A stretch of 64,000 bases of DNA from sequence record MN655998.1, one strand, 5' to 3'. This document shows positions 7,734-58,062 of this stretch, piece after piece. The notes under the pieces are model-generated. The model saw nothing but the letters and a program-made list of their open reading frames with translations, did no database searches and was not told the DNA's origin. This DNA is from Escherichia phage E26. Position numbers and translations under genes: made by a program. Within the stretch, counting starts at the first letter, position 1. Each line of letters starts with the position of its first letter.

Positions 7734-9463
7734 ATGACGCATTAACATCATTTCGCGGGATGCGCAAGGAAGCGGAAGAAAACCCGATTGATAAACTTAA
7801 CAAATTAGATAAACTTGATTCTATTGATAATTTGCAAGCCGCTACCGAATTGGTGGCAGAGACAGTAGAACAAAAATCTAATGAAGTTGTTGGTGCGGTA
7901 GAGGATAACACCGCAGCCAATGAATTGACGGCAGAGAATACCCAATCTACCGCTGGCAATACCCAAAAAACTTATGAAGAATTGCAAAAACTCAATAATT
8001 TCTCTTCTCAGATGAATGAGAAATTACGTGGTTTTGGTGTTATGATGGAACGTAGATTTGGTGTTGTCAGTAAAATGGCTAGCGGTATTGGTGCGATTGA
8101 AGAAGCACTGAAAAAACCGGAACAACCGCAAACAATGCCATCACCTCAGCCAGTTTTGCCTACTGTACCGGAACAGCCTAATAATGACAACTATCAAGGT
8201 CTTCCAAAGAAAAAACCAGATGTTGAGGAACGGAAGAAAAAGAACGCCGCAGATAAGCGTAATGCGGATTCTATGGAAAATCTTCTTAAAGTTGTTCGTG
8301 GAGGATTTAAAGAAACCATAGGCATCTCTAATAAGGTCTTAGGGATGTTATTTAAGATCACCTTGACCGCTATGGCAGAAGCCGCAAAATGGGGCGCTAT
8401 TTTGATGGGTATTGTTTTTGCCATCGATACCCTTATGATTCATTTCAGATATTGGAGTGATTTATTCGAAACACAATTCGATGAATTTATGGATAAGGCC
8501 GGAGAATGGGCTGGACCAATTAGTGATATTCTAACAACTATTCGTCAAGTTCGAGATTATTGGTCTAAAGGTGAATATGGAGAATTAATTAAATCGCTGG
8601 TTATGGGTATTGGTGATGCATTCTATAAAACCTTTATCCAACTTGATCGAATTATCACTACTGGTATTGCTAAAATTCTTCGCATGATCCCTGGTATGGG
8701 TGATTATGCCGATAAGTTAGAATATGGTGCTTTAAAATCTGCTGTCGCTCAAGGCTATACGCCAAATGAAAGAGAACTCGAATTAATGGATAAGGTCGAG
8801 TCTGAACACGAAGAGGACAAATACGGGGAGCGCACAGGGTGGACCGGAAAAGCCCGTGATATTGGCGAAGCTATTGGGGATTCTATTAAGGATAAAGTTA
8901 ACGAAGGTCTTGTTAGTCTGGGTTGGAGAGATCAAAAGGATGTTGACGCAGAGAAACGACAAGAAGAGTTAAAGCGCGGGGAATACAAGTCTGTTTCTGC
9001 TGAACAACGATCTGCTAGTCGTAAACTTAAAATTAAAAGCGAGGGAGCGATCAATAATATTAATGAAGTTATGGAGAATTTGAGCGGTGACTATGACAAA
9101 GAAAGAATGGGAGAGTTGAAAAAGGATATTGATGTTTACCGTGAGAAAGTTCAAGATCCTACATTAGTTGAAAGTGATCGTTCTCAGTTAGAGCGTCTTA
9201 TTGAAAAATTTGATGAGATGTATGCTGATAAAACTAAGGGTGTTGTGCAAACACAGCCAGTTCCGGCAACTGAAACGGAAACAGCAAAACAAGCGGAGCG
9301 TACTGAACAAATGCAGAAACAAGCTGCAATCCAGCAACAAACGACAAATCAGACCTCAAACGTAAATAATACACAAATTGTAACAAACAATAGAACTATT
9401 AAACAGGGTGCACCAACAACTAGAATTGATGCCCCCGGTACAATTAATATGGGGAACTTTTAA
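7730..9463 (+). CDS. 29: baseplate hub subunit / tail length determinator gp29
   Basis: 577 aa, coiled-coil-rich, Q/T-rich C-terminus, synteny. Confidence 0.8.
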   Translation: MNDALTSFRGMRKEAEENPIDKLNKLDKLDSIDNLQAATELVAETVEQKSNEVVGAVEDNTAANELTAENTQSTAGNTQKTYEELQKLNNFSSQMNEKLRGFGVMMERRFGVVSKMASGIGAIEEALKKPEQPQTMPSPQPVLPTVPEQPNNDNYQGLPKKKPDVEERKKKNAADKRNADSMENLLKVVRGGFKETIGISNKVLGMLFKITLTAMAEAAKWGAILMGIVFAIDTLMIHFRYWSDLFETQFDEFMDKAGEWAGPISDILTTIRQVRDYWSKGEYGELIKSLVMGIGDAFYKTFIQLDRIITTGIAKILRMIPGMGDYADKLEYGALKSAVAQGYTPNERELELMDKVESEHEEDKYGERTGWTGKARDIGEAIGDSIKDKVNEGLVSLGWRDQKDVDAEKRQEELKRGEYKSVSAEQRSASRKLKIKSEGAINNINEVMENLSGDYDKERMGELKKDIDVYREKVQDPTLVESDRSQLERLIEKFDEMYADKTKGVVQTQPVPATETETAKQAERTEQMQKQAAIQQQTTNQTSNVNNTQIVTNNRTIKQGAPTTRIDAPGTINMGNF

Positions 9464-10521: not shown

Positions 10522-11453
10522 TGTTTGATTTAAATGACTTTAACGAACAAGCCGCTAACCTTGACTTTCAGCGATCTAACTTATTCAGCGTGGCATTTGC
10601 CACCACTCCAAGTAATAAGACACAAGCGATCCTAGAAAGTATGGGCGGTGCGGTATATGATATTATACCAAATGCATTAAATGACTATTTCGGGATTACT
10701 CGTGGTGATTATACTGACGCATTAACAAATCTTGCTGTACAGGGTGTTAGGCGTGCTGTTGATTCATCTGGTGTCAAAAAGTATCTTTTAGGTGCAATGT
10801 CATCCCGCGTAGTTCAATCTCTTCTGGGGCAATTTGATGTTGGTACATATGCGCTTGACTGGTTCAATATGGCATATAAGACAAGCGGTCTTCTGGTGTA
10901 TGCTGTTAAGGTTCCAGAAAACAGATTGAATTATGAAATGGACCGTAACCACAATGCGCCAAACATTCGAATTACCGGACGTGATTTCGATCCGCTTGTA
11001 TTGAGCTTTAGAATGGACTCTAGCGCATCAAACTATCGAGCAATGCAGGATTGGGTTAACTCAGTAGAAGACCCCGTTACAGGGCTTCGTGCGCTTCCTG
11101 TTGACGTTGAAGCAGATATTCAGGTCAACTTACATAACCGAATGGGAGTTCCTCACACGATCATGATGTTTAATGGTTGTGTTCCTGTTGGTGTGAGTGC
11201 ACCGGAATTAAACTATGAAAACAACAACGAAATCACAACATTCGATGTTACTTTCGCATATCGTTCTATGCAAACTGGTGCTGTAGGAGAGCAAGCCGCG
11301 CGAGAATGGATTGAGGATAAGGCAATAAACGCAATAACAAACACGTTCGGCAATAATTTACTTGATAGTGGGTTATCTGCTGCTGGTAATGCTTTATCGC
11401 GTCTAAATGGCGTTGGTGGGCGTGTGGTGAATACTGTCACTAACTGGTTCTGA
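10521..11453 (+). CDS. 54: baseplate tail-tube initiator gp54
   Basis: 310 aa, synteny. Confidence 0.8.
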   Translation: MFDLNDFNEQAANLDFQRSNLFSVAFATTPSNKTQAILESMGGAVYDIIPNALNDYFGITRGDYTDALTNLAVQGVRRAVDSSGVKKYLLGAMSSRVVQSLLGQFDVGTYALDWFNMAYKTSGLLVYAVKVPENRLNYEMDRNHNAPNIRITGRDFDPLVLSFRMDSSASNYRAMQDWVNSVEDPVTGLRALPVDVEADIQVNLHNRMGVPHTIMMFNGCVPVGVSAPELNYENNNEITTFDVTFAYRSMQTGAVGEQAAREWIEDKAINAITNTFGNNLLDSGLSAAGNALSRLNGVGGRVVNTVTNWF

Positions 11454-11459
11454 TAAGCG

Positions 11460-11489
11460 AAAGGCGGGGATAATCCCCGCCTTTTTATT
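11460..11489. terminator. rho-independent terminator GGCGGGGA-taa-TCCCCGCC + TTTTTATTT
   Basis: 8-bp GC stem followed by T-run on plus strand; sits between convergent gp54 and lipoprotein gene. Confidence 0.6.
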
Positions 11490-11997
11490 TGATTAAATCA
11501 TCACATTGTTTGCGTAGTTTATAGCGATACTGTTTTGATTGTAGCAATTGAAGTTTTTCATAATCCCCTTCCTCATATGCAGCCGAAAGATCATCTTGAT
11601 ATGCTGCTTCCGTCCCGATTACACATACTCCAAATTTTCTACGACGGTCGGCATCTTCCATTGCTTTGCGATTCATTTCTTCAATTGAATTTTCATGACC
11701 ATAATAATATTCGTAAATGCGTTTCTTCTCTGCTTCTTTATCTGCCTTAATCTTTGCGATCTGTTCTGCTGATTCCGGTTGACGACCTAAACGCTGTAAT
11801 GAGGCGTCTTTCTTTTCAAGGTAGTCAATCACGCAATCTTCAACGCTATTAAATGGAAAACGTGACTCTTTCTGCCATCGTTCACATGACCGTACAAACT
11901 CGTGTGTATTCTTAGATGCAAGTGCCAGATCATGCACAGCGCACCCATTAAGCATAGCCACTAAAGCCGCAAGACCAATCAGTTTAATCATTTTCAT
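11485..11997 (-). CDS. putative lipoprotein (signal peptide with LNGC lipobox)
   Basis: MKMIKLIGLAALVAMLNGC...; charged helical mature part; ATGA overlap with upstream ART gene. Confidence 0.5.
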   Translation of the reverse strand: MKMIKLIGLAALVAMLNGCAVHDLALASKNTHEFVRSCERWQKESRFPFNSVEDCVIDYLEKKDASLQRLGRQPESAEQIAKIKADKEAEKKRIYEYYYGHENSIEEMNRKAMEDADRRRKFGVCVIGTEAAYQDDLSAAYEEGDYEKLQLLQSKQYRYKLRKQCDDLIK

Positions 11998-12818
11998 TTA
12001 GTCACCTCACCGAAAATTGTAAATTGTCTACGATTCTCATCACCGAAAGATTCTACTACGTCGTTTACCTTGACGCAAGTCCCGCGCGGTAAAATTACTT
12101 CACATTCGCAAGGATTCCATGCAATTGACCCAACAACAAAACCTTTATGATCTTTTACGTCAATTACCCACGATACATTACAAGAATGTTGCATCTTTCC
12201 GGTCATGGATTCATATCGATTCTCACAATAAAGGCTAGTGCTGTTTGATAGCCAGCCTCCAAAGATGATCGGTGTCATGCTGGTTGACACAAAGTTTTTA
12301 AAGGTAAATTCCTTATCTTCAATAATACGCTCTATTGTCTGAATGTCAAGATGTTGACCGCGATAAAGAGTACCGTTTAACTTTTCGGTTTTATCCATGA
12401 CGCAATCCATCAAATCAACAATCTCTGATATCTCATCGGTCATGTCTTCTTCCCCTAAGAGAGCACCATTTACCCATTCGTATTGTTCAGACACATAATC
12501 ACAGATTGCATTATATTCTGCTGGGGTTATGTTGTTATGTTTGTAATGTTTGAATACATTATCTCCAAAGTCTTCGGAGTGTACTTCATACATCACATTA
12601 ATGATTTTCTTGACAAATCCATAATCTTGTGTCTCACGCTCAAGGAAGCGGATAACCTTCACATAATCATCAAAGTTAATCTGATCGCTGATCATCTCAG
12701 TGATCATGTAACCATTAATCCCCTCAATGTCATATGTTTCGATGTAATTATCCATACGTTCCATCATTGATTCGCGTGATTCTTCTGAAAGACGAAAATC
12801 CTGTAATTTCTTGAACAT
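11994..12818 (-). CDS. short Alt-like mono-ADP-ribosyltransferase (R-S-E class)
   Basis: 274 aa; LYRGQ, STS and ECEVILPRG motifs; same motif set as C-terminus of Alt but lacks the long N-terminal region. Confidence 0.7.
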   Translation of the reverse strand: MFKKLQDFRLSEESRESMMERMDNYIETYDIEGINGYMITEMISDQINFDDYVKVIRFLERETQDYGFVKKIINVMYEVHSEDFGDNVFKHYKHNNITPAEYNAICDYVSEQYEWVNGALLGEEDMTDEISEIVDLMDCVMDKTEKLNGTLYRGQHLDIQTIERIIEDKEFTFKNFVSTSMTPIIFGGWLSNSTSLYCENRYESMTGKMQHSCNVSWVIDVKDHKGFVVGSIAWNPCECEVILPRGTCVKVNDVVESFGDENRRQFTIFGEVTK

Positions 12819-12842
12819 TTTAAGCCTCCCATATAACAGAAA

Positions 12843-12879
12843 ACGGGGCTAGTATAAAACTAGTCCCCGTTTGAGTCAA
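12843..12879 (-). promoter_or_regulatory. PeSL-type early promoter: -35 TTGACT, stem-loop spacer, -10 TATACT
   Basis: Minus strand TTGACT-17 nt-TATACT with ACGGGGCTAGT/ACTAGCCCCGT palindrome in spacer; upstream of short ART. Confidence 0.55.
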
Positions 12880-12896
12880 CCATTATTTCTTAAAAA

Positions 12897-14948
12897 TTAC
12901 ATTTTAAATTTATCTGGCATTGCGTCTACAGATACCAGATCAGCGATAAGCTGACGTAGAGTTGCCTTATCTGCTTTCTTACGTTCGGTTTTAGCTTCGC
13001 TAATGAAGCTGGAGAAAGACAGGTCAGAAGCAGGTTTAACAACACCTTCACGGATGAATGCATCACCGTCCGCGATCATCTCGCCAGATTCTTGTAATGC
13101 TGCCAGTTCATTTTTGTTCATAATATGTGCCTCAATGTAATAAGTTTCTTGTGAATCCGTCGATGCCGTAGCACGAGTTACCGTATCAAAGGATAACACA
13201 ACACCGCGAGGAAGTAAAATCTCGCATTCTTTGTAAGCAAATGCTTTGTTACCTACTGGCAAGACAGGGATGTTTTCCGCGCCAGCAATGGAGAAAGCAA
13301 CATTAGCGCCACCTTCACCGCGAGAGCCAGCCATAGAATCAACACCAGCAACGGCACTAGCCACGTTTGCATTCCAGCCGCCAAAAATGTTAGGTGCAAG
13401 GGAAGTGCTCACATAGTTTTTAAAGTAAAACGCTTTTTGCTTACGTGCAGTTTCCCACATTTGCGACCGGAAGTCCATACCACGATACAGAATAGTACCC
13501 GGATCAAGTTTAACTCCATAGTTGGAGAAGGCATTATCCAGTGCATCGCACATCTTGACCAATTCTTCTGGATCTGCGATGCCTTCAAACTCTTCCAGCT
13601 TACGATCAGTTAGGAAGTTGTTCATATTGATGTATGCTGCATCGGCATATTCGCTCAATACAAAACCTTCCGCGCCAGGCAGATCAAGATCAATATCTGC
13701 CATCATTTCACCCATGTTGCTAGCAATTGCTTCAAACATACCGGAAGCAACATTACGTAGGGCATCGGTTTTAATCTGTGTGATGTGACTACGCAGCATT
13801 TCAGCTTTTACATCTGCTGGCATAGACTGGTCTACTCGATCCATTGCCAGGGCGGTGATCTTGTTTTCGAATACTTCCTCGCTCATGATTTCTTTTAAGC
13901 GTTTGATTGATGCTGCGATAACTTCCGCAGACAACGGATCATATTGATCCTGAACTTTTACCAGTTCGCTTACTGCGTATTTTGCATCGGCTTCGCTTTC
14001 AAAAATAGTACGCATGAAACCATAGCGAGTGATAATATCACTTGTCCAGTCATTCAGAGAACGGGCGGTTGAACGTTCTAAGGCTTGACGATCAATCAGA
14101 GTATTAAACTGTTTCTTAGGTTCGGCTTCGGTGATATCTTCTTCTGGTTTAAGATTAATTTTTTCTGGATGATTCACGTAGTCGCTGTTATATGTCGCTT
14201 GAGTTTTCAGCATTTCTTCTTTAGTCAAACGAGATTTAGCCGCTACGCGTTGTTCTGCTTCCGCGTTTCGTTCTTCTTCTGACACAAGACTAGCCGCATA
14301 TGCCTCATCTTTAGTCAGAGATTCACCAGTAGCCTTAGATACCCAGCGATCACCTAAATCACTTTCTACTTTAGTGAACAAGGATTCATCAAGTTTAATC
14401 CCTTTAATCTTATCAATCGCCATCCCGCGACGCTTGACAACAACTAAAGCGATCTTTTTGCTGGTCATTACTTCCTGCTGGAATACTTCAAACTTCGGTG
14501 TACGACGCACCAAACGCTCTATAACGCGCTTAACCAGTTCGGTCTTACCTTTCATGCGGGATACGTTAAAACGGAACATAACAGCGTCTAATTGCGCTTT
14601 ACGGGCTGTTTCCATAACCACATCAAAAGCACTTGCCATAACTGCAATCGGGTTATCGCCTAGACCATTTTTAAGCTGTACAATACGACCGCTTTTGTTC
14701 ATTTCGCACAGTACAACATGTGCGGTTTTGTCACCCATACGAATGATTTTAGGTGTTTTGTTGGTGAAGTTACAAAGACGGACAATCACATCTTTATCGC
14801 GTGTCTGTACTGCAAAAAGCTGTTTAGGATTCTGCTTAGGCTTTAAGCACTGTACCGGAGCAATACTGCCAAAGTTTTCTTCCTCTTCCGTCAACAGCCA
14901 TTTCTCGAAAGATTCAATCATTAGATCGTCGATTTCTAAGTTAAACAT
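12897..14948 (-). CDS. alt: Alt ADP-ribosyltransferase (head-packaged, T4 Alt-like)
   Basis: 683 aa; C-terminal LYRGMDF, STS, ECEILLPRG ART motifs; size matches T4 Alt. Confidence 0.8.
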   Translation of the reverse strand: MFNLEIDDLMIESFEKWLLTEEEENFGSIAPVQCLKPKQNPKQLFAVQTRDKDVIVRLCNFTNKTPKIIRMGDKTAHVVLCEMNKSGRIVQLKNGLGDNPIAVMASAFDVVMETARKAQLDAVMFRFNVSRMKGKTELVKRVIERLVRRTPKFEVFQQEVMTSKKIALVVVKRRGMAIDKIKGIKLDESLFTKVESDLGDRWVSKATGESLTKDEAYAASLVSEEERNAEAEQRVAAKSRLTKEEMLKTQATYNSDYVNHPEKINLKPEEDITEAEPKKQFNTLIDRQALERSTARSLNDWTSDIITRYGFMRTIFESEADAKYAVSELVKVQDQYDPLSAEVIAASIKRLKEIMSEEVFENKITALAMDRVDQSMPADVKAEMLRSHITQIKTDALRNVASGMFEAIASNMGEMMADIDLDLPGAEGFVLSEYADAAYINMNNFLTDRKLEEFEGIADPEELVKMCDALDNAFSNYGVKLDPGTILYRGMDFRSQMWETARKQKAFYFKNYVSTSLAPNIFGGWNANVASAVAGVDSMAGSRGEGGANVAFSIAGAENIPVLPVGNKAFAYKECEILLPRGVVLSFDTVTRATASTDSQETYYIEAHIMNKNELAALQESGEMIADGDAFIREGVVKPASDLSFSSFISEAKTERKKADKATLRQLIADLVSVDAMPDKFKM

Positions 14949-14981
14949 TTTATATCCTCTAGTTGATAACCTATAAACCTA

Positions 14982-14989
14982 TATTTATG
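14982..14989 (-). promoter_or_regulatory. late-promoter-like box CATAAATA upstream of alt
   Basis: Minus-strand CATAAATA ~35 nt upstream of alt ATG; one mismatch to TATAAATA. Confidence 0.3.
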
Positions 14990-14993
14990 AAAA

Positions 14994-15010
14994 GGGGGCT
15001 TAACGCCCCC
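14994..15010 (-). terminator. hairpin GGGGGC-ttaa-CGCCCCC followed by T-run on minus strand
   Basis: Same hairpin recurs at 18777..18796. Confidence 0.45.
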
Positions 15011-15015
15011 ATTTA

Positions 15016-15228
15016 TTATAATGCACCATCGAGCAATTGCTCTAATGTGTATCCTGAATAGTCTTTTTCAATCAGGATATATTTTCCTACTCGTTTAATA
15101 CAACCGCGCATTTCAACGTATTCTGCGTAGTTGATGGTGCGAGTTGTTCCATCTTCTAGCAAAGCAGTACCGATTTCGTTAATGCGGTCATAAGTTACGT
15201 CGGTAATGATGATTTCGATGTTAGCCAT
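15016..15228 (-). CDS. hypothetical early protein (70 aa)
   Basis: ORF track; RBS AAGGAG; preceded by PeSL promoter. Confidence 0.5.
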   Translation of the reverse strand: MANIEIIITDVTYDRINEIGTALLEDGTTRTINYAEYVEMRGCIKRVGKYILIEKDYSGYTLEQLLDGAL

Positions 15229-15264
15229 TTGATACTCCTTAGTAGTTCGTTTCGGTATGGGTGT

Positions 15265-15293
15265 ATTATGATATACACCCTCTGTTATGTCAA
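15265..15293 (-). promoter_or_regulatory. PeSL early promoter (-35 TTGACA, -10 CATAAT, palindrome GGGTGTAT/ATACACCC)
   Basis: sigma70 hexamers with 17-nt spacing read on minus strand. Confidence 0.6.
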
Positions 15294-15299
15294 CAACTT

Positions 15300-15479
15300 T
15301 TAGAACATTTTTGAAATTAATTCTGCTTTGATTTCGCAGAGAACATCTAAAGATTTCTCGTCACCCGCTTTTGCTGCTTCTGATTGCATTTTTGAAATGG
15401 CTTCAACGTAAGTGCAATTATAAGCCGCTTGAACTTTAGCGATTGCGATGATTGCCGATTCGATGGTTAAGTGTTTCAT
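15300..15479 (-). CDS. hypothetical small protein (59 aa)
   Basis: Hand-translated MKHLTIESAIIAIAKVQAAYN...; RBS AAGGAGAAT; below ORF-track cutoff. Confidence 0.4.
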   Translation of the reverse strand: MKHLTIESAIIAIAKVQAAYNCTYVEAISKMQSEAAKAGDEKSLDVLCEIKAELISKMF

Positions 15480-15511: not shown

Positions 15512-15540
15512 ATTATAGGGGATCACCGATCCCCTGTCAA
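15512..15540 (-). promoter_or_regulatory. PeSL early promoter (TTGACA - GGGGATCGGTGATCCCC - TATAAT)
   Basis: Perfect sigma70 consensus hexamers, 17-nt palindromic spacer. Confidence 0.65.
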
Positions 15541-16068
15541 CAACTTTTTTGAATTATTTTTTAATTGCTCATCTTGTAATAGAGCAATAACATGCTGGCG
15601 ATGTTCTTCCGATTGAGGCACACCGAAAAAGTTTGTTTTGTAGAAATATTCTAATCGATCTTCTCGTGTGCTCTCTTCCATCATGATCGCGGGTAGTCCG
15701 AGATTTCGGAAACGTCGCTTTTCTGCTGGCGTAAAATCACTGTAATACAACATAGAATCATCATTACCAGCAATGCTAAACTCATCTTTCATAAAGGAGA
15801 ATATTGCGTTTAAACGCTGTTTACCGTCCACGATTTCGATCTCATAGCGAGAGCCATCATCAATCTTAGCCATTGCGATAGCACCAACCGGAAAATCATT
15901 AATCAGGTTTTCGATAAACATACGTTTGTTTTCGGTGTCCCATACCAAAGGACGCTGATAATCTGGGTTCATGTTGATATAGCCATCTTCTAACCACGCC
16001 TCATAAACAGAGATGACAAAGTTTTTAGTATTGGTATAGTAACGGCGTTTAGGCGTTAAACGGTTCAT
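15523..16068 (-). CDS. DUF262 (ParB/GmrSD N-terminal-like) domain protein
   Basis: YQRPLVWD ... FPVG ... IVDGKQRLNAI match the DUF262 signature (DGQQR box); start set at MNRLTPK with AGGAGA RBS. Confidence 0.55.
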   Translation of the reverse strand: MNRLTPKRRYYTNTKNFVISVYEAWLEDGYINMNPDYQRPLVWDTENKRMFIENLINDFPVGAIAMAKIDDGSRYEIEIVDGKQRLNAIFSFMKDEFSIAGNDDSMLYYSDFTPAEKRRFRNLGLPAIMMEESTREDRLEYFYKTNFFGVPQSEEHRQHVIALLQDEQLKNNSKKLLTGDR

Positions 16069-16069
16069 G

Positions 16070-16399
16070 TTATAGTCTCCTGAATGGATCATCACGTAAA
16101 TCAATATCTTTTAAGAACTCATCCCATGAATGGCGGATATTGTTCTTAATTCTCCAGATAAGCGCAGGGATTGAACGCTCTCCCATCTGGAAGTAAGGAT
16201 CATATGATCCATATGCCCAATATGCTACTACAATTCCACAATCAGCGCAATAATATTCTATTTCACTTGCTGGCGACCAAAGTCCATCAATATGATCGGT
16301 GATCCTGCTTTCGATGTTATGGCTATGGCAATCAGGGCAACGGATGCAATGACCTTGTTTATCGTAATTTGACGTTAGCGAATACTTAAACAATCTCAT
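16070..16399 (-). CDS. Cys-rich putative zinc-finger protein
   Basis: 109 aa; CIRCPDC ... CADCG pairs; translationally coupled to flanking genes. Confidence 0.5.
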   Translation of the reverse strand: MRLFKYSLTSNYDKQGHCIRCPDCHSHNIESRITDHIDGLWSPASEIEYYCADCGIVVAYWAYGSYDPYFQMGERSIPALIWRIKNNIRHSWDEFLKDIDLRDDPFRRL

Positions 16400-17115
16400 T
16401 ATAGATCCTTATTTGCTTCAAATACTGCCTTTGCGAATCCTCGCGGGGTAAGTGACCTTATAGTCTTTGTTTTCGTTCCTTTCCCGCCTAGCTTAGAATG
16501 CTGTTTACTGTACCCTTTATTAATCTGCAACGGTTTCTTTTCTGGCATTATAAAGCCTTGTCCGGTCCATAAGCAAGTCCTTTTCGGGTACATATCACGG
16601 GCGGCAATATACTCAGGAAAAGTAGGATGTTTATCATCTTCCGGCAAATAACCGCCATATTCCCACGGATGGAACATATAATCAGGCTTACGCCACATGC
16701 TAGAGATAACGCTTACAGGATTCTCTATCATGTAGGGAACTCCTAGCCATTCACCCAAATAAGCGGTTATTTTAGCTGCCCGTACATCATGAACTTGAAT
16801 CAATGGTCCTTGCTCTCGTTTCTTTCGTTCAAAGTGTGCAGCGCCACTAACAGCTAAATTGGTGCACGGTGGGAATGCAAATATAATATCCGGTTTCCCC
16901 CATTCAAGGTCCATTGCTCTTTCTAGCCAGTTCAAATCAATCCATGTGTTTACATATGTAATGTTTGGATGTTCAAATCGGGTATTATATTTTTTGTATG
17001 TACCGTGGTCGCCATCGTCAGCATTAAAGCAGATCACCTTATGACCTGCTTTAGCCCATTCTAACCCCATTATCCCCGATCCGTCAAAGTTGCAGAATAT
17101 TAATTTTTGTTTCAC
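16399..17115 (-). CDS. compact C5-cytosine-methyltransferase-like protein (motifs I, IV, VI)
   Basis: FDGSGIMG (FxGxG), FPPCTNLAVSG (PC motif), ENPV (ENV motif) in canonical order; only 238 aa, no obvious TRD. Confidence 0.4.
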   Translation of the reverse strand: MKQKLIFCNFDGSGIMGLEWAKAGHKVICFNADDGDHGTYKKYNTRFEHPNITYVNTWIDLNWLERAMDLEWGKPDIIFAFPPCTNLAVSGAAHFERKKREQGPLIQVHDVRAAKITAYLGEWLGVPYMIENPVSVISSMWRKPDYMFHPWEYGGYLPEDDKHPTFPEYIAARDMYPKRTCLWTGQGFIMPEKKPLQINKGYSKQHSKLGGKGTKTKTIRSLTPRGFAKAVFEANKDL

Positions 17116-17403: not shown

Positions 17404-17432
17404 ATTGTAGGGGAGTTATCCTCCCCTGTCAA
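17404..17432 (-). promoter_or_regulatory. PeSL early promoter (TTGACA - GGGGAGGATAACTCCCC - TACAAT)
   Basis: Hexamers with 17-nt palindromic spacer. Confidence 0.6.
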
Positions 17433-17647: not shown

Positions 17648-17676
17648 ATTATAGGGGATCTCCCGATCCCCGTCAA
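17648..17676 (-). promoter_or_regulatory. PeSL early promoter (TTGACG - GGGATCGGGAGATCCCC - TATAAT)
   Basis: Near-identical to element at 20918..20947. Confidence 0.6.
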
Positions 17677-20883: not shown

Positions 20884-20917
20884 TTTGATTCTCCTATATC
20901 TCGTTGGTATGTGTGTA

Positions 20918-20947
20918 TTATAGGGGATCTCCCGATCCCCTGTCAAC
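20918..20947 (-). promoter_or_regulatory. PeSL early promoter (TTGACA - GGGGATCGGGAGATCCCC - TATAAT)
   Basis: Duplicate of 17648 element. Confidence 0.6.
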
Positions 20948-22061: not shown

Positions 22062-22091
22062 ATTATAGGGGAGTTTAGCCTCCCCTGTCAA
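22062..22091 (-). promoter_or_regulatory. PeSL early promoter (TTGACA - GGGGAGGCTAAACTCCCC - TATAAT)
   Basis: Hexamers plus palindromic spacer. Confidence 0.6.
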
Positions 22092-22456: not shown

Positions 22457-22485
22457 AGTATAGGGGATCGGTGATCCCCTGTCAA
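22457..22485 (-). promoter_or_regulatory. PeSL early promoter (TTGACA - GGGGATCACCGATCCCC - TATACT)
   Basis: Hexamers plus palindromic spacer. Confidence 0.6.
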
Positions 22486-25839: not shown

Positions 25840-25875
25840 AATTTTCTTACCTCTTCAATTCATCTCAATAGTAAA

Positions 25876-26493: not shown

Positions 26494-26816
26494 CTGCCAC
26501 CGTAAATTTCGACGATCTGCGCTGGAGTCAGCCCGTCTACATTAATCAGACTATCAAGCCCAAAACTACGGAAACCTTCAACTGCAATTTCATATACTGG
26601 CAAAGATGTTTCTGAGTCTTTACGCGGTTTTTCAACATTCGGAACTAACCACTTTTCGTATGTTTCGAAAGGCATCAGTGCCGGATCTCGCGTGGCGATC
26701 ATCTCACGGACAGTACCATCTTTCTTAGTAAACTGCAAAGAGTGAGTACCGACCGAAAACATTTTCTTTAGTGCTTCACGAAGTGCGATATTATCAACTT
26801 GTTCAGTCATTATCAA
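26490..26816 (-). CDS. hypothetical protein (108 aa)
   Basis: ORF track; overlaps cd stop. Confidence 0.45.
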   Translation of the reverse strand: MIMTEQVDNIALREALKKMFSVGTHSLQFTKKDGTVREMIATRDPALMPFETYEKWLVPNVEKPRKDSETSLPVYEIAVEGFRSFGLDSLINVDGLTPAQIVEIYGGS

Positions 26817-44696: not shown

Positions 44697-47600
44697 ATGG
44701 CAGATTTTTCTCAACATTTCAAGGCCACGTTTGGCTTTGACGCTGGTAATGAAAAGGTCGTCAATGTAGCATTGGCTGATAAGAATGTCAACACCGATGC
44801 GGTCAACGTTGAATTTTTCAATTACCATAATGGTATTACTCAGTATGACACAACTCGCGGTTATGATCAATACGGAACTACAATCTATCAAAACCGTCCG
44901 TATTATGCAAAAGAAGATATCACAAAACCGGCAGGTGATTTTGACCCGACTAAATGGCAAGCACTGCGCACGGACCCACGTTGGGATTATATTGCAGCAA
45001 CTTCCGGTGATACTCCTTTAAAGTCTGGTGATTATATCGCAGCAGATGGTCAATTTGCAAACTTGACTTTCTCTATGCCAACTAAACCAGCAGAGGGAGA
45101 CACTATAACAGTAAAAGATATCGGTGGCAAGTGTGGTGTTAACGAATTATCGTTCTTGAGTTCAGGACATGAGTTTTACCATAACGGTAATGTGTATAAC
45201 CGAAAATGGTATTGCACTACCCCGTATGCAATGAACTATTTCATCTTTGTTCGTAATCGTTGGCATGTTTATCAGACAGGAACAGAGCCACGCGGTGTGT
45301 ACGCACAGCCAGCGATTGATGCTATTCAAATGCAGAATGGTGACCAGGTATTTCGTCGTAGTTCGTTGGGTAATATTACCTTAGTGCTTCCTAAGTTTGC
45401 CAACAATGGCGACATGATCCAGACTACAGACCTTGACGGATTAACCGCAACCAACCACGTTACGGTTAAAGTTCATGAGCACGCAGAAGAACAATCAATT
45501 GGCACGTCCGGTCTAAAAGAGATTATCGGTAAGCGTAGCGGTCATGGTGTATTCATCTTTGACAAGACGGAAAACTTATGGCGTTTGTGGGATGGTGATC
45601 AGTCTGTTCGTCTTAAACCGATCATCGATGACACTCGCTTGCAACCTAATAGCTATGTTGCTGTATTTGGTGATCGTGATGTTACTCTGACGCTGCCGAC
45701 CAATGTCGAGCCGGGTGATCGTATTCAAGTTTCTATGCAGTATATGCACGGAAACCAGAATTGCCGTATTATCACCGCCACAGAGGATACAAAAATCCTT
45801 ATGTCGAAAAACATGGTTCAGTTTCCGAAGCGTAGCGAGTACCCATTCAACGGGACCGACACATGGAAGGAAGTGTCTGAATTGTCGTTCAATGCGGCTA
45901 GTGATTATGTACCTTATCTGGAGTTCTCTTATTCAGAAGGTGATGATGGTAAGAAACATTGGCTGGTAGCACACTCTCATCCGATCGTCGAACGAGTAGA
46001 CCCTACTCGTAAAGAGCGTGTTGGTGTAATTGCACTGGCTACCCAAACTGAAACGAATAAAAACCATGAAGAGAATCCTAGCGACGAAGTTGCAGTAACA
46101 CCAAAAATGCTGGCTAATAAAACCGCCAACGAAACTCGACGCGGTATTGCTCGCATTGCGACTCAAGCGGAAACGCATCAAGATACTGGTTCTAACTTCC
46201 TGGATGATGTTATCGTTACGCCTAAAAAGTTAAATGACTGTGTTGCTACCGAAGCCCGTCGTGGTGTGATGGAAATTGCAACTCAACATGAAACCAATGA
46301 AGGTTTAGACGATACCCGCGCTATTACTCCTAAGAAATTAGAAGAACGTCGCGCTTCCGAAGATCTCGCTGGCATTGCTGAAATTGTTCAGGCTGGCGGT
46401 AGTGCTGCCGCTCGACGTGGCGAAGCTGGTACAGGGATCTATAACATCAACGACCATGCTAAAATTGTTACGCCACAAAACATCAACGAAGTCAAGGCGA
46501 CCGAAACTTCCCGTGGTGTTGGCTATCTGGCAACTGACGCGGAAGTGCAAGGGGCTACAGAATCAACCCCGCAAGATGCTTTACTAATCACGACTCGCAC
46601 GCTAACGAAACGTACTGCTACCGAATCGCGCACTGGTATCGCTGAAATTGCAACTCAGGAAGAAACAAACTTAGGTCAAAGTGATAACCATATCATCACG
46701 CCTAAAAAGCTGCATGGCAAAAAAGCCACCGAAGGTAAAGAAGGTATTATCCGAGTTGGTACTCAAGCCGAAACCGTGGCTGGTACACTGGCTAATGTAG
46801 CAATTTCTCCGAAGAACTTCAAATATGTTGTTCAGACAGAGGATACATGGAAAGCAACAGAAGCGCGTCGTGGATTCTTGAAAGTTGCTACTCAGGAAAA
46901 CTGTTTTGTTGGTGATAATCTGCAAGGTTCTACTCAAGAACTAGGAAACTACCAGCATGACGGAATTGCTGTTACCCCTAAAGGATTAAACTACGCACTT
47001 GCTAATTTCTTACCTAAGATGGCAACCGCTCAGAATAGTTTGAAATTGGGTAACGTAGAGGCCGCTAAATGGGCGCGTAGAGACATTGACCAGACCATAG
47101 AGAGCAATTACACGTTTAATAAAAAAGTTAACGTGAAGGGCGATTTAGAGTGCTTAAAATCAGGTTCCTTTGAAACTCTGTATGTGACTAAGAACTCTAC
47201 TGATGATCCGAGTAATGGTCATCTGGTGTTGGGTGAGCGTGGAGTTGACGGTCACACCGGAATTACTCTGCATGGCACAACCGCATCGGAAGGCATGAAA
47301 AACTCCTGGTCTATTATCGTTGGTGGTACTGGAACGGCGCAAGCAGTTAATAGTGGCGCTATCGCTTTCGGTCAAATCAATGATGGTGGAGTCGTCGAGC
47401 ATTACGCCTTTGCTATGGAACACACTGGCGACGCGACAGCATATAGAAACTTAATGGCAGGTCGTAACCTGTATGCAAAACAAGGCGGTTTATACATTGT
47501 TGACCTGTCTAATCCGGCAATGACTCGTTCCTCAGATGGTATGCTGAATATCGGTCACGGTGGAAGTGTTAACATCAAGGCAGGTTATCAGAATCTGACT

Positions 47601-48131
47601 ACAGAGATCGCCGGACAGAAATATCAGATCGTACACACAGGAAACGCTGACGAAGTTCTTAACCGTCAGTTTGTTAAGAATGCTGGCGATACAATGGTCG
47701 GTAAGCTGACTATGGATAATGCGCCTATTGTTTCTGTTAAGCATGAAGCTAGCGCGGCAACCGCCCCAGCAATCGGTAACATCGGTTTCTGGAATATGCG
47801 AGTTACTACCCAGAACATCAAAGAAACTTATCCAGAGAAGAAAAACGGTACTCTGATGCAATGGGGTACTGACGCGGACGGGCTTACCCAGCTTTGGTCC
47901 CCTGATGGTACTCATAAACATTATATCCGTTCCGGTACTGGTGGTCAATGGACCGCATGGGGTGAAATTTACACCAAACAGAATAAGCCTACCGCTCAGG
48001 AAATCGGGGCAGTAGTTGCAGAAGGTGGTTTAATGAACTCTATGACGGTTCGTGATTGGATCAAAGTTGGTAATGTTAAAATCATCGCCAATAATCTGAC
48101 TCGTACCGTAGACTTTATCTGGGAAGACTAA
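44697..48131 (+). CDS. 34: long tail fibre proximal subunit gp34
   Basis: 1144 aa; repeated ATQxETxxG blocks; synteny 34-35-36-37. Confidence 0.85.
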   Translation: MADFSQHFKATFGFDAGNEKVVNVALADKNVNTDAVNVEFFNYHNGITQYDTTRGYDQYGTTIYQNRPYYAKEDITKPAGDFDPTKWQALRTDPRWDYIAATSGDTPLKSGDYIAADGQFANLTFSMPTKPAEGDTITVKDIGGKCGVNELSFLSSGHEFYHNGNVYNRKWYCTTPYAMNYFIFVRNRWHVYQTGTEPRGVYAQPAIDAIQMQNGDQVFRRSSLGNITLVLPKFANNGDMIQTTDLDGLTATNHVTVKVHEHAEEQSIGTSGLKEIIGKRSGHGVFIFDKTENLWRLWDGDQSVRLKPIIDDTRLQPNSYVAVFGDRDVTLTLPTNVEPGDRIQVSMQYMHGNQNCRIITATEDTKILMSKNMVQFPKRSEYPFNGTDTWKEVSELSFNAASDYVPYLEFSYSEGDDGKKHWLVAHSHPIVERVDPTRKERVGVIALATQTETNKNHEENPSDEVAVTPKMLANKTANETRRGIARIATQAETHQDTGSNFLDDVIVTPKKLNDCVATEARRGVMEIATQHETNEGLDDTRAITPKKLEERRASEDLAGIAEIVQAGGSAAARRGEAGTGIYNINDHAKIVTPQNINEVKATETSRGVGYLATDAEVQGATESTPQDALLITTRTLTKRTATESRTGIAEIATQEETNLGQSDNHIITPKKLHGKKATEGKEGIIRVGTQAETVAGTLANVAISPKNFKYVVQTEDTWKATEARRGFLKVATQENCFVGDNLQGSTQELGNYQHDGIAVTPKGLNYALANFLPKMATAQNSLKLGNVEAAKWARRDIDQTIESNYTFNKKVNVKGDLECLKSGSFETLYVTKNSTDDPSNGHLVLGERGVDGHTGITLHGTTASEGMKNSWSIIVGGTGTAQAVNSGAIAFGQINDGGVVEHYAFAMEHTGDATAYRNLMAGRNLYAKQGGLYIVDLSNPAMTRSSDGMLNIGHGGSVNIKAGYQNLTTEIAGQKYQIVHTGNADEVLNRQFVKNAGDTMVGKLTMDNAPIVSVKHEASAATAPAIGNIGFWNMRVTTQNIKETYPEKKNGTLMQWGTDADGLTQLWSPDGTHKHYIRSGTGGQWTAWGEIYTKQNKPTAQEIGAVVAEGGLMNSMTVRDWIKVGNVKIIANNLTRTVDFIWED

Positions 48132-51067: not shown

Positions 51068-54013
51068 ATGGCAGATTTAAGCAGAATCCAATTTAAACGC
51101 ACTAGCACTAAAGGTCGTCGACCGGATGCTAGTACGATGAATCCGGGGGAATTGGCAATCAACCTTGCGGATCAATATCTTCTTACTAAAAATGATTCCG
51201 GTGCTATTATCAATTTAAGTTGTCCTCCGGTTTATGACCGTGACGTTACAATGGCGGGTAAAGTTAAAGGTAATAATTATATCTTAAGTAAAACCGCTAA
51301 CTATCTGGAAGATCAGACAGCGCGAGATCTTAACTACTTTGGCGCTTTCCGTACCAATGGTCTTGATGGTTTTCTAGAACTAACGCTAAACGTTCCTCAT
51401 CCTACTGGTGTTCAGCATGGTCGAGGATTTACTTTCCAGTATGGACACACTGGATCGCGTGTAGAAACTTATGGCTATAATAAAGAAGGTCAAAAAGCAT
51501 TTAGCTATAAAATGTATCATGAAGGTGATAAACCAACTCCAGGAGAATTGAACGTTTATAGCAAACAAGAAGTAGATAGAATGTTTGTTAAGAACGTTAA
51601 ACTTGCTACATCTCCTAGTGATATCGTTGAAGGCTATTTTAAATTAGCAACTGCAATGATTCCACAAAACGGTCTTAGCGTATTTTTCCGTATTCATGGT
51701 GGTAACGGATATAACGTTACTGCATACGATCAAGTTGATATTGTAGAAATTGTTATTCGCAGTGGAAATGGTCGCCCTAAAGGTGTTAACGTTATTGCAT
51801 ATCGCCGAAATACAAACAAATCATTTGATGTTTTGGCTGTTAATACTTCTGGTGATAACTATGATATCTATGTGAAATATCAGCGTTACACTGATAACGT
51901 TATTGTTGAATTTGGTAAAAGTGTTGGTGTTAATCTGGTAGTTCATGACGTTCCAGACTTTGTTGTTGATCGTCCTGTTGGTGATAATGTTATTGGCGGT
52001 CGCGCGGTAACTCTTTTTAACACCGAAAACAAACGAGGTGTGTTGAGTTTTGACGATAACACACAAAATAGTTATGATATTGTTCACTTGAGTAATGATA
52101 AAGGTACTGGAAGGAAATATATTCGTAAATTCCGTAGTAACTATAATGAAATGATCTGGCATGAGACTGTTCAAGGTTCTACTTATCGACTCGCCACGGG
52201 TAGTACAGATGCTCAGGAGATTCTATCCGTTGAATCTAGTAGCTCTATTGCTGGGACTCATAAAGGTAATATTCTTTCTGGTCGAATGATGTTAGGTGGC
52301 GGTAGTAATGTTATTACCTTGCGGCGTCCTGCTGGTCAATCCAACCATATTGCGTTTCAAGATAATCGGACTGGAGCTATTACCCGTCAAGGGTGGATCG
52401 GTTATGGTAATGCTGATACTAACGTTTTTGAATGGTATAGTGATGTAGGTGGTAGTTCTATTCGTCACCACATCGACGGACAGATCGAACTTGCAACCGG
52501 TAACACAAAACGCGTTTATACTAACGCTCAATTCATCTCAATGAATAGCGACGCCTACCGCATGCTCTACGGTAATTATGGTGCATTCTGGCGTAATGAC
52601 GGCGTTAAAGTTTATCTTCTTTCTACTGCCGAAAATGATACAATGGGCGGATGGAATGCCTATCGTCCATTCATTTATGATTTAACTTCCGGTAACGTTC
52701 AATTAGGCGGTGATGGTAACGAAGAAGCATTAACGTTAGAACGTGCTTCTCGTGCCGCTCGCTTTAGTAATGACGTTTACATTAAGAAAGGGCTTTTGAC
52801 TTTCGACGCTGGTCGCTCTGGATCTCGCGATTATATTCGATTTAATCATTGGGGTGATAGTAATAATGCCCGTGATAACGTTTTGTACATAGAAGATAGT
52901 CAAGGCCGACATTTTAGCACAGAACGTGCGATGGGTACTGGTGCTCTTAAAGCATACTTCTTAGGCGATCTTGAAGTCGGTGGTAAGTTTACTTGGGGTA
53001 AAAATACAGCTACATCTAGCTTTAATATTCGTGCATGGGGTAATGATTCCCGTAAACAAGTATTAGAATGCGCGGATGAAAGTGGTTGGCATTGGTATAC
53101 CCAACGTCCAGGCGGTCCGGGAACAAATGAGATTATATTCAATGTTAACGGGAAAGTTCAATCTCAGGGTTTTGAGACTTCTGGTAATATTAAGATAACT
53201 GGACCAGACATTGAGTTTCGTCGCACTGGCAATAAGCACATCTGGTTTAGAGATCCTGACGGCTTAGAATTGGGTTTGATTTATTGTGACGACAACGGCG
53301 TTATTCGTTTCCGTGGTCAAAAACAAACTCAAGATTGGATATTTGGCAATAAGACGATCCAATTAGGAACTAGTGCTACTGTTAGTGGATCTGGTAACGG
53401 TTTGATTCGCGGACAAGTTCAAGGTGGTGCTTGGACACAATGGAGAGATCGTGCTGCTGGCTTATTGGTTGATTGTCAGAATACCGAAAACTCTGCACAT
53501 AACGTGTGGAAAGCGACACATTGGGGCAAATTCCACATTGCAGCTATGGGTATTCACGTTTCAGGTGGAAATATAGCAAACGCATTGGCGCGTCTACATG
53601 TTAATGATGCAACTTTTGACCATAGTGCGAGCGGTGACTTCCAGGCAAGCCGTAATGGTAGCTTTAACGATGTTTATATTCGTTCTGATGCTCGCCTTAA
53701 AATCAATAAGGAAGAGTATAAAGAGAATGCCACAGATAAAGTTAATCGCTTGACGGTATACACCTATGACAAGGTTAAATCTTTAACCGACCGTACTGTC
53801 ATTGCTCATGAAGTTGGTATTATTGCACAGGATCTTGAAAAAGAATTGCCGGAAGCAGTAACAACTTCTAAGGTCGGCGATCCTGATAAGCCAGAAGAGA
53901 TCTTAACAATTTCTAACTCTGCTGTCAACGCTCTTTTAATTAAGGCGTTTCAGGAAATGAGCGAAGAATTGAAAGCCGTTAAAGCTGAACTAGCGGAACT
54001 TAAAAAGAATTAA
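51068..54013 (+). CDS. 37: long tail fibre distal subunit gp37 with C-terminal intramolecular-chaperone-like domain
   Basis: MADLSRIQFKRTSTKGRRPDA...GELAINL resembles T4 gp37 start; C-terminal SDARLK (Ser-x4-Lys) box as in S74-type autocleaving chaperone domains. Confidence 0.8.
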   Translation: MADLSRIQFKRTSTKGRRPDASTMNPGELAINLADQYLLTKNDSGAIINLSCPPVYDRDVTMAGKVKGNNYILSKTANYLEDQTARDLNYFGAFRTNGLDGFLELTLNVPHPTGVQHGRGFTFQYGHTGSRVETYGYNKEGQKAFSYKMYHEGDKPTPGELNVYSKQEVDRMFVKNVKLATSPSDIVEGYFKLATAMIPQNGLSVFFRIHGGNGYNVTAYDQVDIVEIVIRSGNGRPKGVNVIAYRRNTNKSFDVLAVNTSGDNYDIYVKYQRYTDNVIVEFGKSVGVNLVVHDVPDFVVDRPVGDNVIGGRAVTLFNTENKRGVLSFDDNTQNSYDIVHLSNDKGTGRKYIRKFRSNYNEMIWHETVQGSTYRLATGSTDAQEILSVESSSSIAGTHKGNILSGRMMLGGGSNVITLRRPAGQSNHIAFQDNRTGAITRQGWIGYGNADTNVFEWYSDVGGSSIRHHIDGQIELATGNTKRVYTNAQFISMNSDAYRMLYGNYGAFWRNDGVKVYLLSTAENDTMGGWNAYRPFIYDLTSGNVQLGGDGNEEALTLERASRAARFSNDVYIKKGLLTFDAGRSGSRDYIRFNHWGDSNNARDNVLYIEDSQGRHFSTERAMGTGALKAYFLGDLEVGGKFTWGKNTATSSFNIRAWGNDSRKQVLECADESGWHWYTQRPGGPGTNEIIFNVNGKVQSQGFETSGNIKITGPDIEFRRTGNKHIWFRDPDGLELGLIYCDDNGVIRFRGQKQTQDWIFGNKTIQLGTSATVSGSGNGLIRGQVQGGAWTQWRDRAAGLLVDCQNTENSAHNVWKATHWGKFHIAAMGIHVSGGNIANALARLHVNDATFDHSASGDFQASRNGSFNDVYIRSDARLKINKEEYKENATDKVNRLTVYTYDKVKSLTDRTVIAHEVGIIAQDLEKELPEAVTTSKVGDPDKPEEILTISNSAVNALLIKAFQEMSEELKAVKAELAELKKN

Positions 54014-57261: not shown

Positions 57262-58062
57262 TTAACCCTTCTTATATTCGCAAACATATTGAGTACCATA
57301 ATCATAGCTAATGCGACCTTTCTCGATGACTTCAAAGCGGATTTCATCGTTTTCCCCTACCCACATTTTGTACTCGTTGAAGTATCCTGCTACATCCGGT
57401 TTGCTCATACCAACAACCATATTTTTATATTGTTTGCTGCGTGTCAGATTTGATTTAAACACTTCGCGCTCATCAACATATACGAAAGAAGACAATTCAC
57501 CTTCGGTCATGGTCATTTTCAGCTTGCCGCCCTTGTTGCCATAAGTAGAGTTGCCATACAATGGATCTTTGCGGCTGTCTGTTTCAATACCATCAATGAT
57601 TTTCCATGTAAATTTTGCAATGCACTGATAAGTGATAGATCCAGAGATTTTCTCTTCTTTCTTCTGTTCTTCCACCACTTTTTCTTCCTGTTTCGGTTGT
57701 TCTTCGTCAACCTTCACAGAAGTCTCTGAATCGCTTTCTGATGCGGTTTCTTCTTTAGGTAATACATTCATCAAGTTTTGGATTTGAGCGTTATATACAG
57801 CCTCCAGTGGCTGGATCTGCCCGATATTGATCATTGTATCACGAACAGTTTTATTCCAGTTGCGTTGCTCTTGTTTAAGAGACGGATCAATCTTAACAGC
57901 CTTAACATACACTTCATGAAGTTTAGAATCCAGTGCGGAGATTGACTCATTAGCACAAATAAACTTCTCTGATTTGGTAGTAGCTTTAGCGCAATCGAAG
58001 GAAGCAGCATTAGCACCGAAAGCAGTAGCAGAAAGAACGATAGCAGCGATAATGTTTTTCAT
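57262..58062 (-). CDS. secreted protein with DUF1311 (LprI lysozyme-inhibitor-like) N-terminal domain
   Basis: Signal peptide MKNIIAAIVLSATAFGANA; CAKATTKSEKFICANESISALDSKLHEVY...QRNWNKTVRD matches the DUF1311 Cys/QRxW pattern. Confidence 0.5.
   Translation of the reverse strand: MKNIIAAIVLSATAFGANAASFDCAKATTKSEKFICANESISALDSKLHEVYVKAVKIDPSLKQEQRNWNKTVRDTMINIGQIQPLEAVYNAQIQNLMNVLPKEETASESDSETSVKVDEEQPKQEEKVVEEQKKEEKISGSITYQCIAKFTWKIIDGIETDSRKDPLYGNSTYGNKGGKLKMTMTEGELSSFVYVDEREVFKSNLTRSKQYKNMVVGMSKPDVAGYFNEYKMWVGENDEIRFEVIEKGRISYDYGTQYVCEYKKG

Follow-up and report, generated by a model that had tools for sequence, protein, structure and literature searches.

Within a 64,000-nt stretch of the genome of Escherichia phage E26 (MN655998.1), here called the window, we analysed positions 11485-14948, which can be recognised as an ordinary alt locus of an RB49-type (Krischvirus) T4-like coliphage. 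Three consecutive minus-strand genes occupy the locus, encoding a long and a short member of the Alt family of ADP-ribosyltransferases (ARTs) and a predicted lipoprotein:

12897..14948, minus strand: alt (RB49p184), orthologue of T4 alt, 683 aa (open reading frame (ORF), Pfam, PHROG, tblastn)
11994..12818, minus strand: short Alt-family ART, 274 aa (RB49p183, phrog_15144; ORF, Pfam, PHROG, AlphaFold2)
11485..11997, minus strand: predicted exported lipoprotein, 170 aa, positional and distant homologue of RB49p182 (ORF, lipobox, phrog_16112 with E = 4e-12)

The trio is convergent with gp54 and gp48. Since the RB49 RefSeq record lists RB49p184 (alt), RB49p183 (ART) and RB49p182 (hypothetical), all three genes were already annotated, the second under the label [quoted passage not shown]. 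The paralogy of the two enzymes was likewise already known, both from that annotation and from Nolan et al. 2006 (PMC1524935), who named RB49ORF183c as an alt paralogue (paralogous duplication). Hence the headline of an initial annotation of this DNA, made from the sequence alone, namely two Alt-family enzymes of which one is short and early, adds nothing beyond RefSeq and the 2006 paper. What the present analysis adds is that the short ART is ancient and strongly constrained, that an orphan lipoprotein always goes with it, and that the gene for this lipoprotein forms a deeply divergent allele cassette. The sole new point is this last one: very divergent, old alleles of the lipoprotein gene in otherwise near-identical phages, of which we found no description.

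The long and the short enzyme

A megablast search with positions 11400-15300 returned 58 phage records (query coverage of at least 80%, identity of at least 95%), every one of them an RB49-like Krischvirus coliphage. The closest relative was vB_EcoM_011D4 (99.2% DNA identity), with RB49 at 98%. Five metagenomic relatives (L008, L011, L013, L016 and L018) supplied further Alt/short-ART pairs. The order Alt, short ART, lipoprotein and convergent gp54 was complete in Krischvirus, L008 and L016, and was also seen in L013 and L018, where a contig edge removes the start of Alt; the L011 and L012 contigs stop at the short ART, so that no lipoprotein gene is visible there. The features and coordinates given in the initial annotation (ORFs, motifs, promoter-like site, ATGA overlap and lipobox) were all recovered.

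The 683-aa product consists of an N-terminal Tevenvirinae_ADPRT region, a C-terminal ART domain with the Arg-Ser-Glu (R-S-E) triad and a C-terminal tail. It matched PF03496 (ADPrib_exo_Tox; E = 2.3e-9, 37.3 bits, cut-off 23.4) and carries the triad motifs LYRGM (LYRG at 487-490), STS and ECEILLPRG. The phrog_802 profile spans the whole protein (residues 16-683 on profile positions 2-674, E = 7e-180), T4 Alt aligned to it by tblastn across 695 aa (E = 8e-58, 27% identity), and PF26846 was matched on the Alt orthologues of L020-L022, which are 97-99% identical to the window Alt. Compared with RB49 Alt, the window protein is 99.6% identical and the synonymous divergence (dS) of the gene is 0.046. 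This full-length homology, including the N-terminal region, together with synteny beside gp54, identifies the long gene as the orthologue of T4 alt.

The 274-aa protein, which is 100% identical to RB49p183, is made up of a helical N-terminal region and an R-S-E core (R153, S178, E238/E240). Its match to PF03496 (E = 4.3e-16, 59.3 bits, same cut-off of 23.4) is accompanied by the motifs LYRGQ (R153), STS (178-180) and ECEVILPRG (E238/E240), and a family alignment of nine members, going down to 23% identity, shows the catalytic R, S, E and E unchanged throughout. The initial annotation had given both proteins the signature ECE(V/I)LLPRG, which holds for the long copy and not for the short one. 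By domain and motifs, both enzymes are thus assigned to the Alt/VIP2-type R-S-E ARTs, as had been proposed, and we regard their identity as Alt-family ARTs as highly probable; the two catalytic cores, whose alignment had been suggested as a check, are 37% identical over 109 aa (E = 1e-16).

Besides its match to phrog_15144 (E = 3e-198), the short ART aligns through residues 8-268 with positions 330-602 of the 674-position phrog_802, and we therefore read it as the helical pre-domain and catalytic core of Alt, devoid of the N-terminal ~330 residues, whose absence had been noted at the outset, and also of the C-terminal tail. An AlphaFold2 model (pLDDT 81, pTM 0.79) retrieved Vis, C3bot, Certhrax, Iota and CDTa in Foldseek with probability 1.00 and E~1e-9, so that the protein is predicted to have a C3/Vis/Iota-like NAD-binding ART fold. 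The ORF is self-contained: because its start codon is the first after a stop and three in-frame stops precede it on the alt side, it is no 3' part of a longer gene. Neither of the two weaknesses that the initial annotation had envisaged for the short protein, lack of an NAD-binding fold or origin as a 3' fragment of a longer gene, was therefore found.

Short or shortened Alt-like proteins also occur in other forms. P0016 (415 aa) and P0017 (316 aa) are intermediate enzymes in which most of the N-terminal region is gone, while the Alt C-terminal tail (...YDGD.L.ETG...KF..), lost in the 274-aa subfamily, is retained; whether this tail has a role in packaging may be asked. The short ART of the Shigella phage JK32 (L004, 3171-4004) begins MFKMFKQL..., a 3-residue N-terminal duplication that brings it to 277 aa.

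The signals that surround the two enzyme genes and close the operon are as follows:

12841..12879, minus strand: PeSL-type (early promoter with stem-loop) cassette, predicted to terminate alt transcripts and to drive early transcription of the short ART and lipoprotein genes (motif scan, folding)
12825..12830, minus strand: GGGAGG Shine-Dalgarno sequence, 6 nt before the short-ART ATG (sequence)
14982..14989, minus strand: CATAAATA, candidate late promoter, 7/8 match to the T4-type TATAAATA, 34 nt before the alt ATG (sequence; inference)
14994..15010, minus strand: terminator-like hairpin and T-run (GGGGGCgttaaGCCCCC TTTT) before alt (terminator scan; dG -14.4 kcal/mol, z = -2.9)
11459..11485, bidirectional: intrinsic terminator separating the lipoprotein gene from convergent gp54 (dG -19.6 kcal/mol, z = -5.05)

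The 78-nt gap between alt and the short ART gene contains a promoter-like site with a -35 box TTGACT (12879-12874), a 17-nt spacer and a -10 box TATACT (12856-12851), matching at 10 of 12 positions, and a hairpin (12841-12872) followed by a U-run (dG -18.9 kcal/mol, z = -4.3), as stable as which none was obtained in 200 shuffles. The sigma70/PeSL promoter that had been placed at 12843..12879 was thus seen again. The site has the PeSL architecture: sigma70-like -35 and -10 boxes, a spacer within 16-18 nt, an adjacent stable stem-loop and an intergenic position. Reporter assays on other copies in RB49/phi1 have established promoter and terminator activity for the PeSL class (PMC2839356), and both activities are predicted for the copy at 12841..12879; this hairpin, terminator and sigma70 promoter in one, would part alt from the 274-aa enzyme. 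As far as sequence signals go, the short ART has a PeSL-type sigma70 site and no exact TATAAATA upstream, and its early expression appears probable. Across the window, the pattern TTGACN-N15-19-TANNNT occurs 59 times as against 16.6 expected, mostly on the minus strand. Many near-identical PeSLs of the form TTGACAGGGGATC...GATCCCCTATAAT are spread window-wide, mainly on the minus strand (15512-15540, 17404-17432, 17648-17676, 20917-20946, 22062-22091, 22457-22485, 34449-34477 and 58319-58347).

Upstream of alt itself, the promoter scan found no sigma70-like site directly before the gene; instead there is the terminator-like hairpin and, 34 nt before the ATG, the CATAAATA motif, which makes late expression of Alt plausible. 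The spacing is like that at gp34 and gp36 of the window, which are preceded by exact TATAAATA motifs at 29 and 34 nt. The hairpin would halt early transcripts coming from upstream PeSLs, and a terminator upstream of alt is kept in 5 of 6 T4-like genomes (Nolan 2006, PMC1524935). By analogy with T4, packaging of Alt, and of the long form only, is plausible as well.

Age of the short enzyme and the Mod proteins

For kinship analysis, identities and a tree were computed from the window proteins, the Alt/short-ART pairs of the five metagenomic relatives and the Alts of T4, JS98 and fDHCT2. Over 243 shared columns, the short ART is 22% identical to its own Alt, 24-29% to the Alts of T4, JS98 and fDHCT2, 26% to the short ART of L016 and 43-50% to the remaining four short ARTs compared. 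The short ARTs form a clade apart from all long Alts, with 100% bootstrap, and appear as an old subfamily of their own (phrog_15144). Because of the low identity to its own Alt and of this separate clade, a duplication of alt is at best ancient and older than the sampled lineages. The proposal that the short gene arose by duplication of alt is thus retained in a deep sense and abandoned as regards a recent copy.

The short ART has been kept in six lineages (Krischvirus and five others) and is intact in all 58 Krischvirus records, at 97-100% identity. The ratio of nonsynonymous to synonymous divergence (dN/dS) lies at 0-0.09 and dS goes up to 0.35; for the window against RB49, NG86 gave a dN of 0 and a dS of 0.080. 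Purifying selection on the gene is strong. The locus often holds additional alt copies or fragments (T4 alt.-1 and alt.-2, two full copies in JS98, three in fDHCT2), and this would suit the view that the short ART is a decaying, functionless remnant of a tandem alt, like T4 alt.-1/alt.-2. Against such a remnant speak the 58 intact records, the low dN/dS at appreciable dS, the catalytic triad unchanged in members as distant as 23%, the confidently predicted ART fold, the gene's own Shine-Dalgarno sequence and predicted promoter, and its conservation across six lineages, which bring the probability of this view close to nil. A pseudogene or 3' fragment was ruled out by the ORF start, the in-frame stops, the intact records and the dN/dS values.

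The initial annotation had described the short ART as an early, Mod-type enzyme, that is, as a recent alt duplicate taking over the role of T4 ModA/ModB in modifying RNA polymerase and translation early in infection. Several observations fit: the gene adjoins alt and shares its catalytic core, its predicted promoter is of the early type, and RB49 has one Mod-like gene and no detectable ModA (tblastn), so that the short ART could fill the slot of a third ART as in T4. Indeed, on similarity searches, RB49 can be credited with three ARTs like T4, the third being Alt-derived. However, (i) the duplication is not recent, since the short ART is no nearer to its own Alt than to T4-type Alts and lies in a clade of its own, (ii) tblastn with T4 ModA and ModB gave no match on the short-ART gene, MAFFT alignment gave only 15-19% identity to either, and all PHROG matches of the short ART are Alt-like, and (iii) the gene lies between alt and gp54, away from the srd-mod region. 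The canonical mod place in RB49 is occupied by RB49p014 ("modB", E = 1.4e-7, beside srd), and T4 ModB matches RB49 by tblastn at 9082-9417 only. The term Mod-type can therefore stand at most as an analogy of expression timing, and we consider a recent duplicate in the Mod role unlikely.

Divergent alleles of the lipoprotein gene

The start codon of the lipoprotein gene overlaps the stop codon of the short ART gene (ATGA, 11994-11997). This overlap and the LNGC lipobox, both reported in the initial annotation, are present, and the two genes are translationally coupled. The protein begins with MKMIKLIGLAALVAMLNGC; its signal peptide, MKMIKLIGLAALVAMLNG-C19, ends in the lipobox motif MLNGC, and Cys19 is found in each of the 14 members aligned, the alleles reading LTGC or L/I-NGC and the distant L013 homologue LFGC. 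Four more cysteines are invariant (38, 55, 125 and 165), which suggests two disulfides, Ala at +2 would, under the +2 rule, direct the protein to the outer membrane, and the structural model is all-helical (pLDDT 81). The gene product would thus be an exported, all-helical lipoprotein, probably stapled by disulfides.

The family is very small, with just 9 representatives among 1.84 billion proteins, and wherever the context of a member could be read, its gene has a short ART gene immediately upstream and the convergent gp54 downstream. No relatives outside this family were found in Pfam, NCBIfam, PADLOC, a PDB profile search or Foldseek against BFVD, nor was any PHROG with a function. Arbiol et al. 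(2010) remarked on a link of ORF182 to plasmids and pathogenicity islands; a tblastn comparison of the RB49 lipoprotein allele with plasmids, prompted by that remark, gave no match. T4 alt.-3 was considered as a counterpart of the lipoprotein and rejected, as it has neither signal peptide nor lipobox.

Most of the gene lies in a segment of its own:

11502..11938, minus strand: allelic-replacement island in the lipoprotein gene, 437 bp, unalignable to RB49 by megablast, with flanks at 97-100% DNA identity

Between the window and RB49, the proteins of the region are 99.6% (Alt), 100% (short ART), 100% (gp54) and 99% (gp48) identical, while the lipoproteins share ~37%, a within-genus value comparable to the divergence between phage lineages (25-31%). 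For this pair, NG86 gave a dN of 0.735 and a dS of 1.88; overall, lipoprotein dS reaches 0.9-2.5 against 0.03-0.35 in the flanking genes, and dN/dS between close alleles is 0.12-0.23. In the 58 genomes, the alleles fall into classes with 100%, 91%, 46-48% and 28-33% identity to that of the window, and metagenome alleles stand at 94, 86, 84, 63, 50 and 45%. The alleles are mosaic, with three types of N-terminal and two types of C-terminal module; that of JK32 has its C-terminal module, and not its N-terminal one, in common with the window. The homology arms are the conserved signal-peptide codons and the terminator. As dS is saturated and close alleles show a dN/dS of 0.12-0.23, we see here old functional alleles moved by recombination and not a fast-evolving gene; positive selection as the cause of the divergence was rejected on the same grounds. 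The third gene of the operon would then be an ancient mosaic allele cassette recombining among near-identical phages.

The lipoprotein allele assorts independently of gp37, of the gp38 adhesin and of the gp54/gp48/gp29 type, and also of a dimorphic LprI-like secreted protein encoded elsewhere in the window. This protein (57262..58062, minus strand; 266 aa) has a signal peptide, MKNIIAAIVLSATAFGANA, and, in its N-terminal part, a domain of the LprI "lysozyme inhibitor" type (PF07007, 24.6 bits, cut-off 22). Relative to RB49p262, its first ~140 residues are identical and its C-terminal domain ~37% identical, the latter occurring in two forms across Krischvirus (99% or above in 10 records, below 60% in 46). 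It is a candidate Spackle-like tail-lysozyme inhibitor.

As to the role of the lipoprotein, the strict adjacency and start/stop overlap of the two genes in five lineages, the confinement of the family to positions downstream of short ARTs, the usual polymorphism of downstream immunity genes and the structural neighbour 8za7 of the ART, an ART-ARH toxin-immunity effector, all bring to mind the polymorphic toxin systems, in which a variable immunity gene comes after an ART toxin, and with them a toxin-immunity (or effector-regulator) pair. Neither co-variation nor a common compartment was found, however: the ART is 100% identical where the lipoproteins share ~37%, and it is devoid of a signal peptide whereas its partner is exported, so that their predicted compartments differ. 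Pfam and NCBIfam, moreover, showed in the lipoprotein neither a macro nor an ARH domain nor any other domain known to reverse ADP-ribosylation, and gene overlaps are common in compact T4-type genomes. Such a pair seems very improbable.

The allelic diversity could also be explained if the lipoprotein masked the phage's own outer-membrane receptor, in the way that the phage lipoproteins Llp (of T5) and Cor act, the alleles tracking receptor specificity; an early-expressed lipoprotein with predicted outer-membrane location and strong diversity would be in keeping with this. Identical lipoproteins, however, go with gp37 proteins at 49-91% identity, phages with ~90% gp37 bear the RB49-type allele, co-variation with the gp38 adhesin is absent, and there is no likeness to any known family. 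Receptor masking is for these reasons improbable, if less so than the toxin-immunity pair.

Phage o-spanins are outer-membrane lipoproteins, and a periplasmic helical protein could serve as such or as a lysis-inhibition factor. Yet RB49 already has the pseT.3/pseT.2 spanin pair, t and rI; a protein of 170 aa with four structural cysteines is unlike the short o-spanins of other phages, the gene follows a predicted early PeSL promoter with no late promoter, and it adjoins no lysis gene. A lysis component is, of the roles considered for the lipoprotein, the one with the slightest probability.

Since the lipoprotein is early (as predicted), exported and polymorphic, is under purifying selection within alleles, and since tblastn detected neither Imm nor Sp in RB49, we tentatively favour for it a possible role as an envelope-level factor in competition between phages or between phage and host, for example in superinfection exclusion, tied to the ART by co-expression only. 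In a more specific form, which we hold somewhat less likely still, it would serve the T4-like phages with this module as an envelope conflict factor under balanced polymorphism, for example as a superinfection-exclusion stand-in for Imm/Sp; frequency-dependent selection would hold the ancient alleles, and these would be exchanged as a cassette bounded by the signal-peptide codons and the terminator. A bolder version would join the lipoprotein and the invariant early ART into a two-compartment takeover module.

Overall, the best explanation of the locus would be as follows. Alt, an R-S-E mono-ADP-ribosyltransferase, would by T4 analogy be synthesised late, packaged in the head and injected with the DNA; the short enzyme, probably cytoplasmic, early-made and NAD+-using, may ADP-ribosylate host proteins; and the coupled lipoprotein may act in the envelope. 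As a blend of enzyme identity, early expression and lipoprotein role, we consider this explanation reasonably probable. Several points weigh against it. The promoter site of the short ART reaches only 10 of 12 matches, and such -35/-10 sites are as frequent in the 5.5-kb region (16 found) as in shuffles (15.8 expected), so that it is the PeSL architecture that carries the case for a promoter. Before alt, the late-promoter motif matches at 7 of 8 positions, and the packaging of Alt in Krischvirus is taken from T4. The Asn at -2 of the lipobox in the window allele is non-canonical, most alleles having LTGC. T4 Imm and Sp homologues were not detected by tblastn in RB49, the one genome searched, and such absence is weak for small, fast-evolving proteins; hhalign of T4 Sp with the lipoprotein gave a probability of 4.9%, the signal peptides alone being aligned. 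The lipoprotein shows no sequence or structural likeness to any known protein, no positive sign of an exclusion role and no co-variation with gp37, gp38 or gp54/gp48, and we may have been too quick to dismiss a functional link behind its conserved position next to the ART. In the literature, we found neither virion proteomics nor transcriptomics of Krischvirus, nor a functional study of RB49p183, nor any mention of the lipoprotein.

T4 ARTs have recently given unexpected chemistry, namely RNAylation by ModB, and given this the target of the short ART is of interest. The lipoprotein gene is a 0.5-kb cassette whose alleles are as divergent as between genera, in phages otherwise 98-100% identical. 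Krischvirus phages are in therapeutic use, and should the lipoprotein be an allele-specific exclusion or host-interaction factor, this would affect cocktail design and the outcome of co-infections.

Neighbouring genes and known systems

Immediately upstream of alt, in a PeSL-rich block, the window encodes a GmrSD_N (DUF262-type) domain protein (15523..16104, minus strand; PF03235, E = 3e-20), whose gene adjoins a DNA methyltransferase homologue (16399..17115); a lone N-terminal domain of a type IV restriction enzyme is unusual in a lytic phage. The distal tail-fibre gene gp37 (51068..54013, plus strand) is mosaic, an internal segment of 332 nt (52217-52548) being replaced relative to RB49; whole-protein identities among Krischvirus records are 41-91%, and even the closest genome, 011D4, reaches only 91%. 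The gp34 protein (44697..48131, plus strand) has 1144 aa as against 1246 aa in RB49, through an in-frame length change of 306 nt flanked by a 42-nt repeat (overlapping BLAST segments) around 46674-46715. The gp54 protein belongs to another length class (309 aa) in JK32, AV108 and L020, as does gp29 (~558 aa) in JK32 and L020. Further islands without an RB49 megablast match lie at 25863-26502, 31821-32170, 36747-37057, 39627-39943, 41104-41690, 58359-58629 and 58892-59246; in most of them a small ORFan cassette has been inserted or deleted, and at 39627-39943 the window is devoid of the 1.4-kb endonuclease gene RB49p240.

Compared with known envelope exclusion proteins (T4 Sp and Imm, T5 Llp, Cor and TP-J34 Ltp), the lipoprotein is likewise small, exported and predicted to be early. 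Llp, Cor and Ltp are lipid-anchored and Sp and Ltp helical, and the lipoprotein is alike in both respects. It differs in that no relation of sequence or fold was found (Sp, Pfam, functional PHROGs, PDB and BFVD), and exclusion activity is hypothetical here. The short ART, for its part, resembles ModA and ModB as a small, stand-alone R-S-E ART predicted to be made after infection and not packaged, and differs from them in having no detectable sequence relation and another locus.

The PeSLs of RB49/phi1 (Arbiol et al. 2010; Comeau et al. 2014) and the copy before the short ART share the sigma70-like -35 and -10 boxes, an AT-rich upstream stretch and a GC-rich stem-loop, and are alike intergenic and ahead of a variable gene block. 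In the commonest PeSLs of the window the stem lies between -35 and -10, whereas in the short-ART copy the hairpin spans the -10 box.

The locus as a whole shares its genomic position with that of T4, between the gene-30 side and the convergent gp54, and the long protein is a full-length homologue of T4 Alt, yet just 27% identical. The catalytic half of T4 Alt (residues 413-593) also matches the short ART (E = 9e-20), and the R-S-E triad is common to both; the short ART differs in having neither the N-terminal ~330 residues nor the C-terminal tail, in its own predicted early promoter and in its separate clade. Extra Alt-family genes between alt and gp54 are likewise known as the tandem paralogues of JS98 (two), fDHCT2 (three), T4 (alt.-1/alt.-2) and 44RR (ORF187c/188c). 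Those are full-length genes or N-terminal fragments, have no PeSL of their own and are followed by alt.-3, whereas the Krischvirus copy consists of the catalytic half only, has its own predicted promoter and is followed by the lipoprotein gene.

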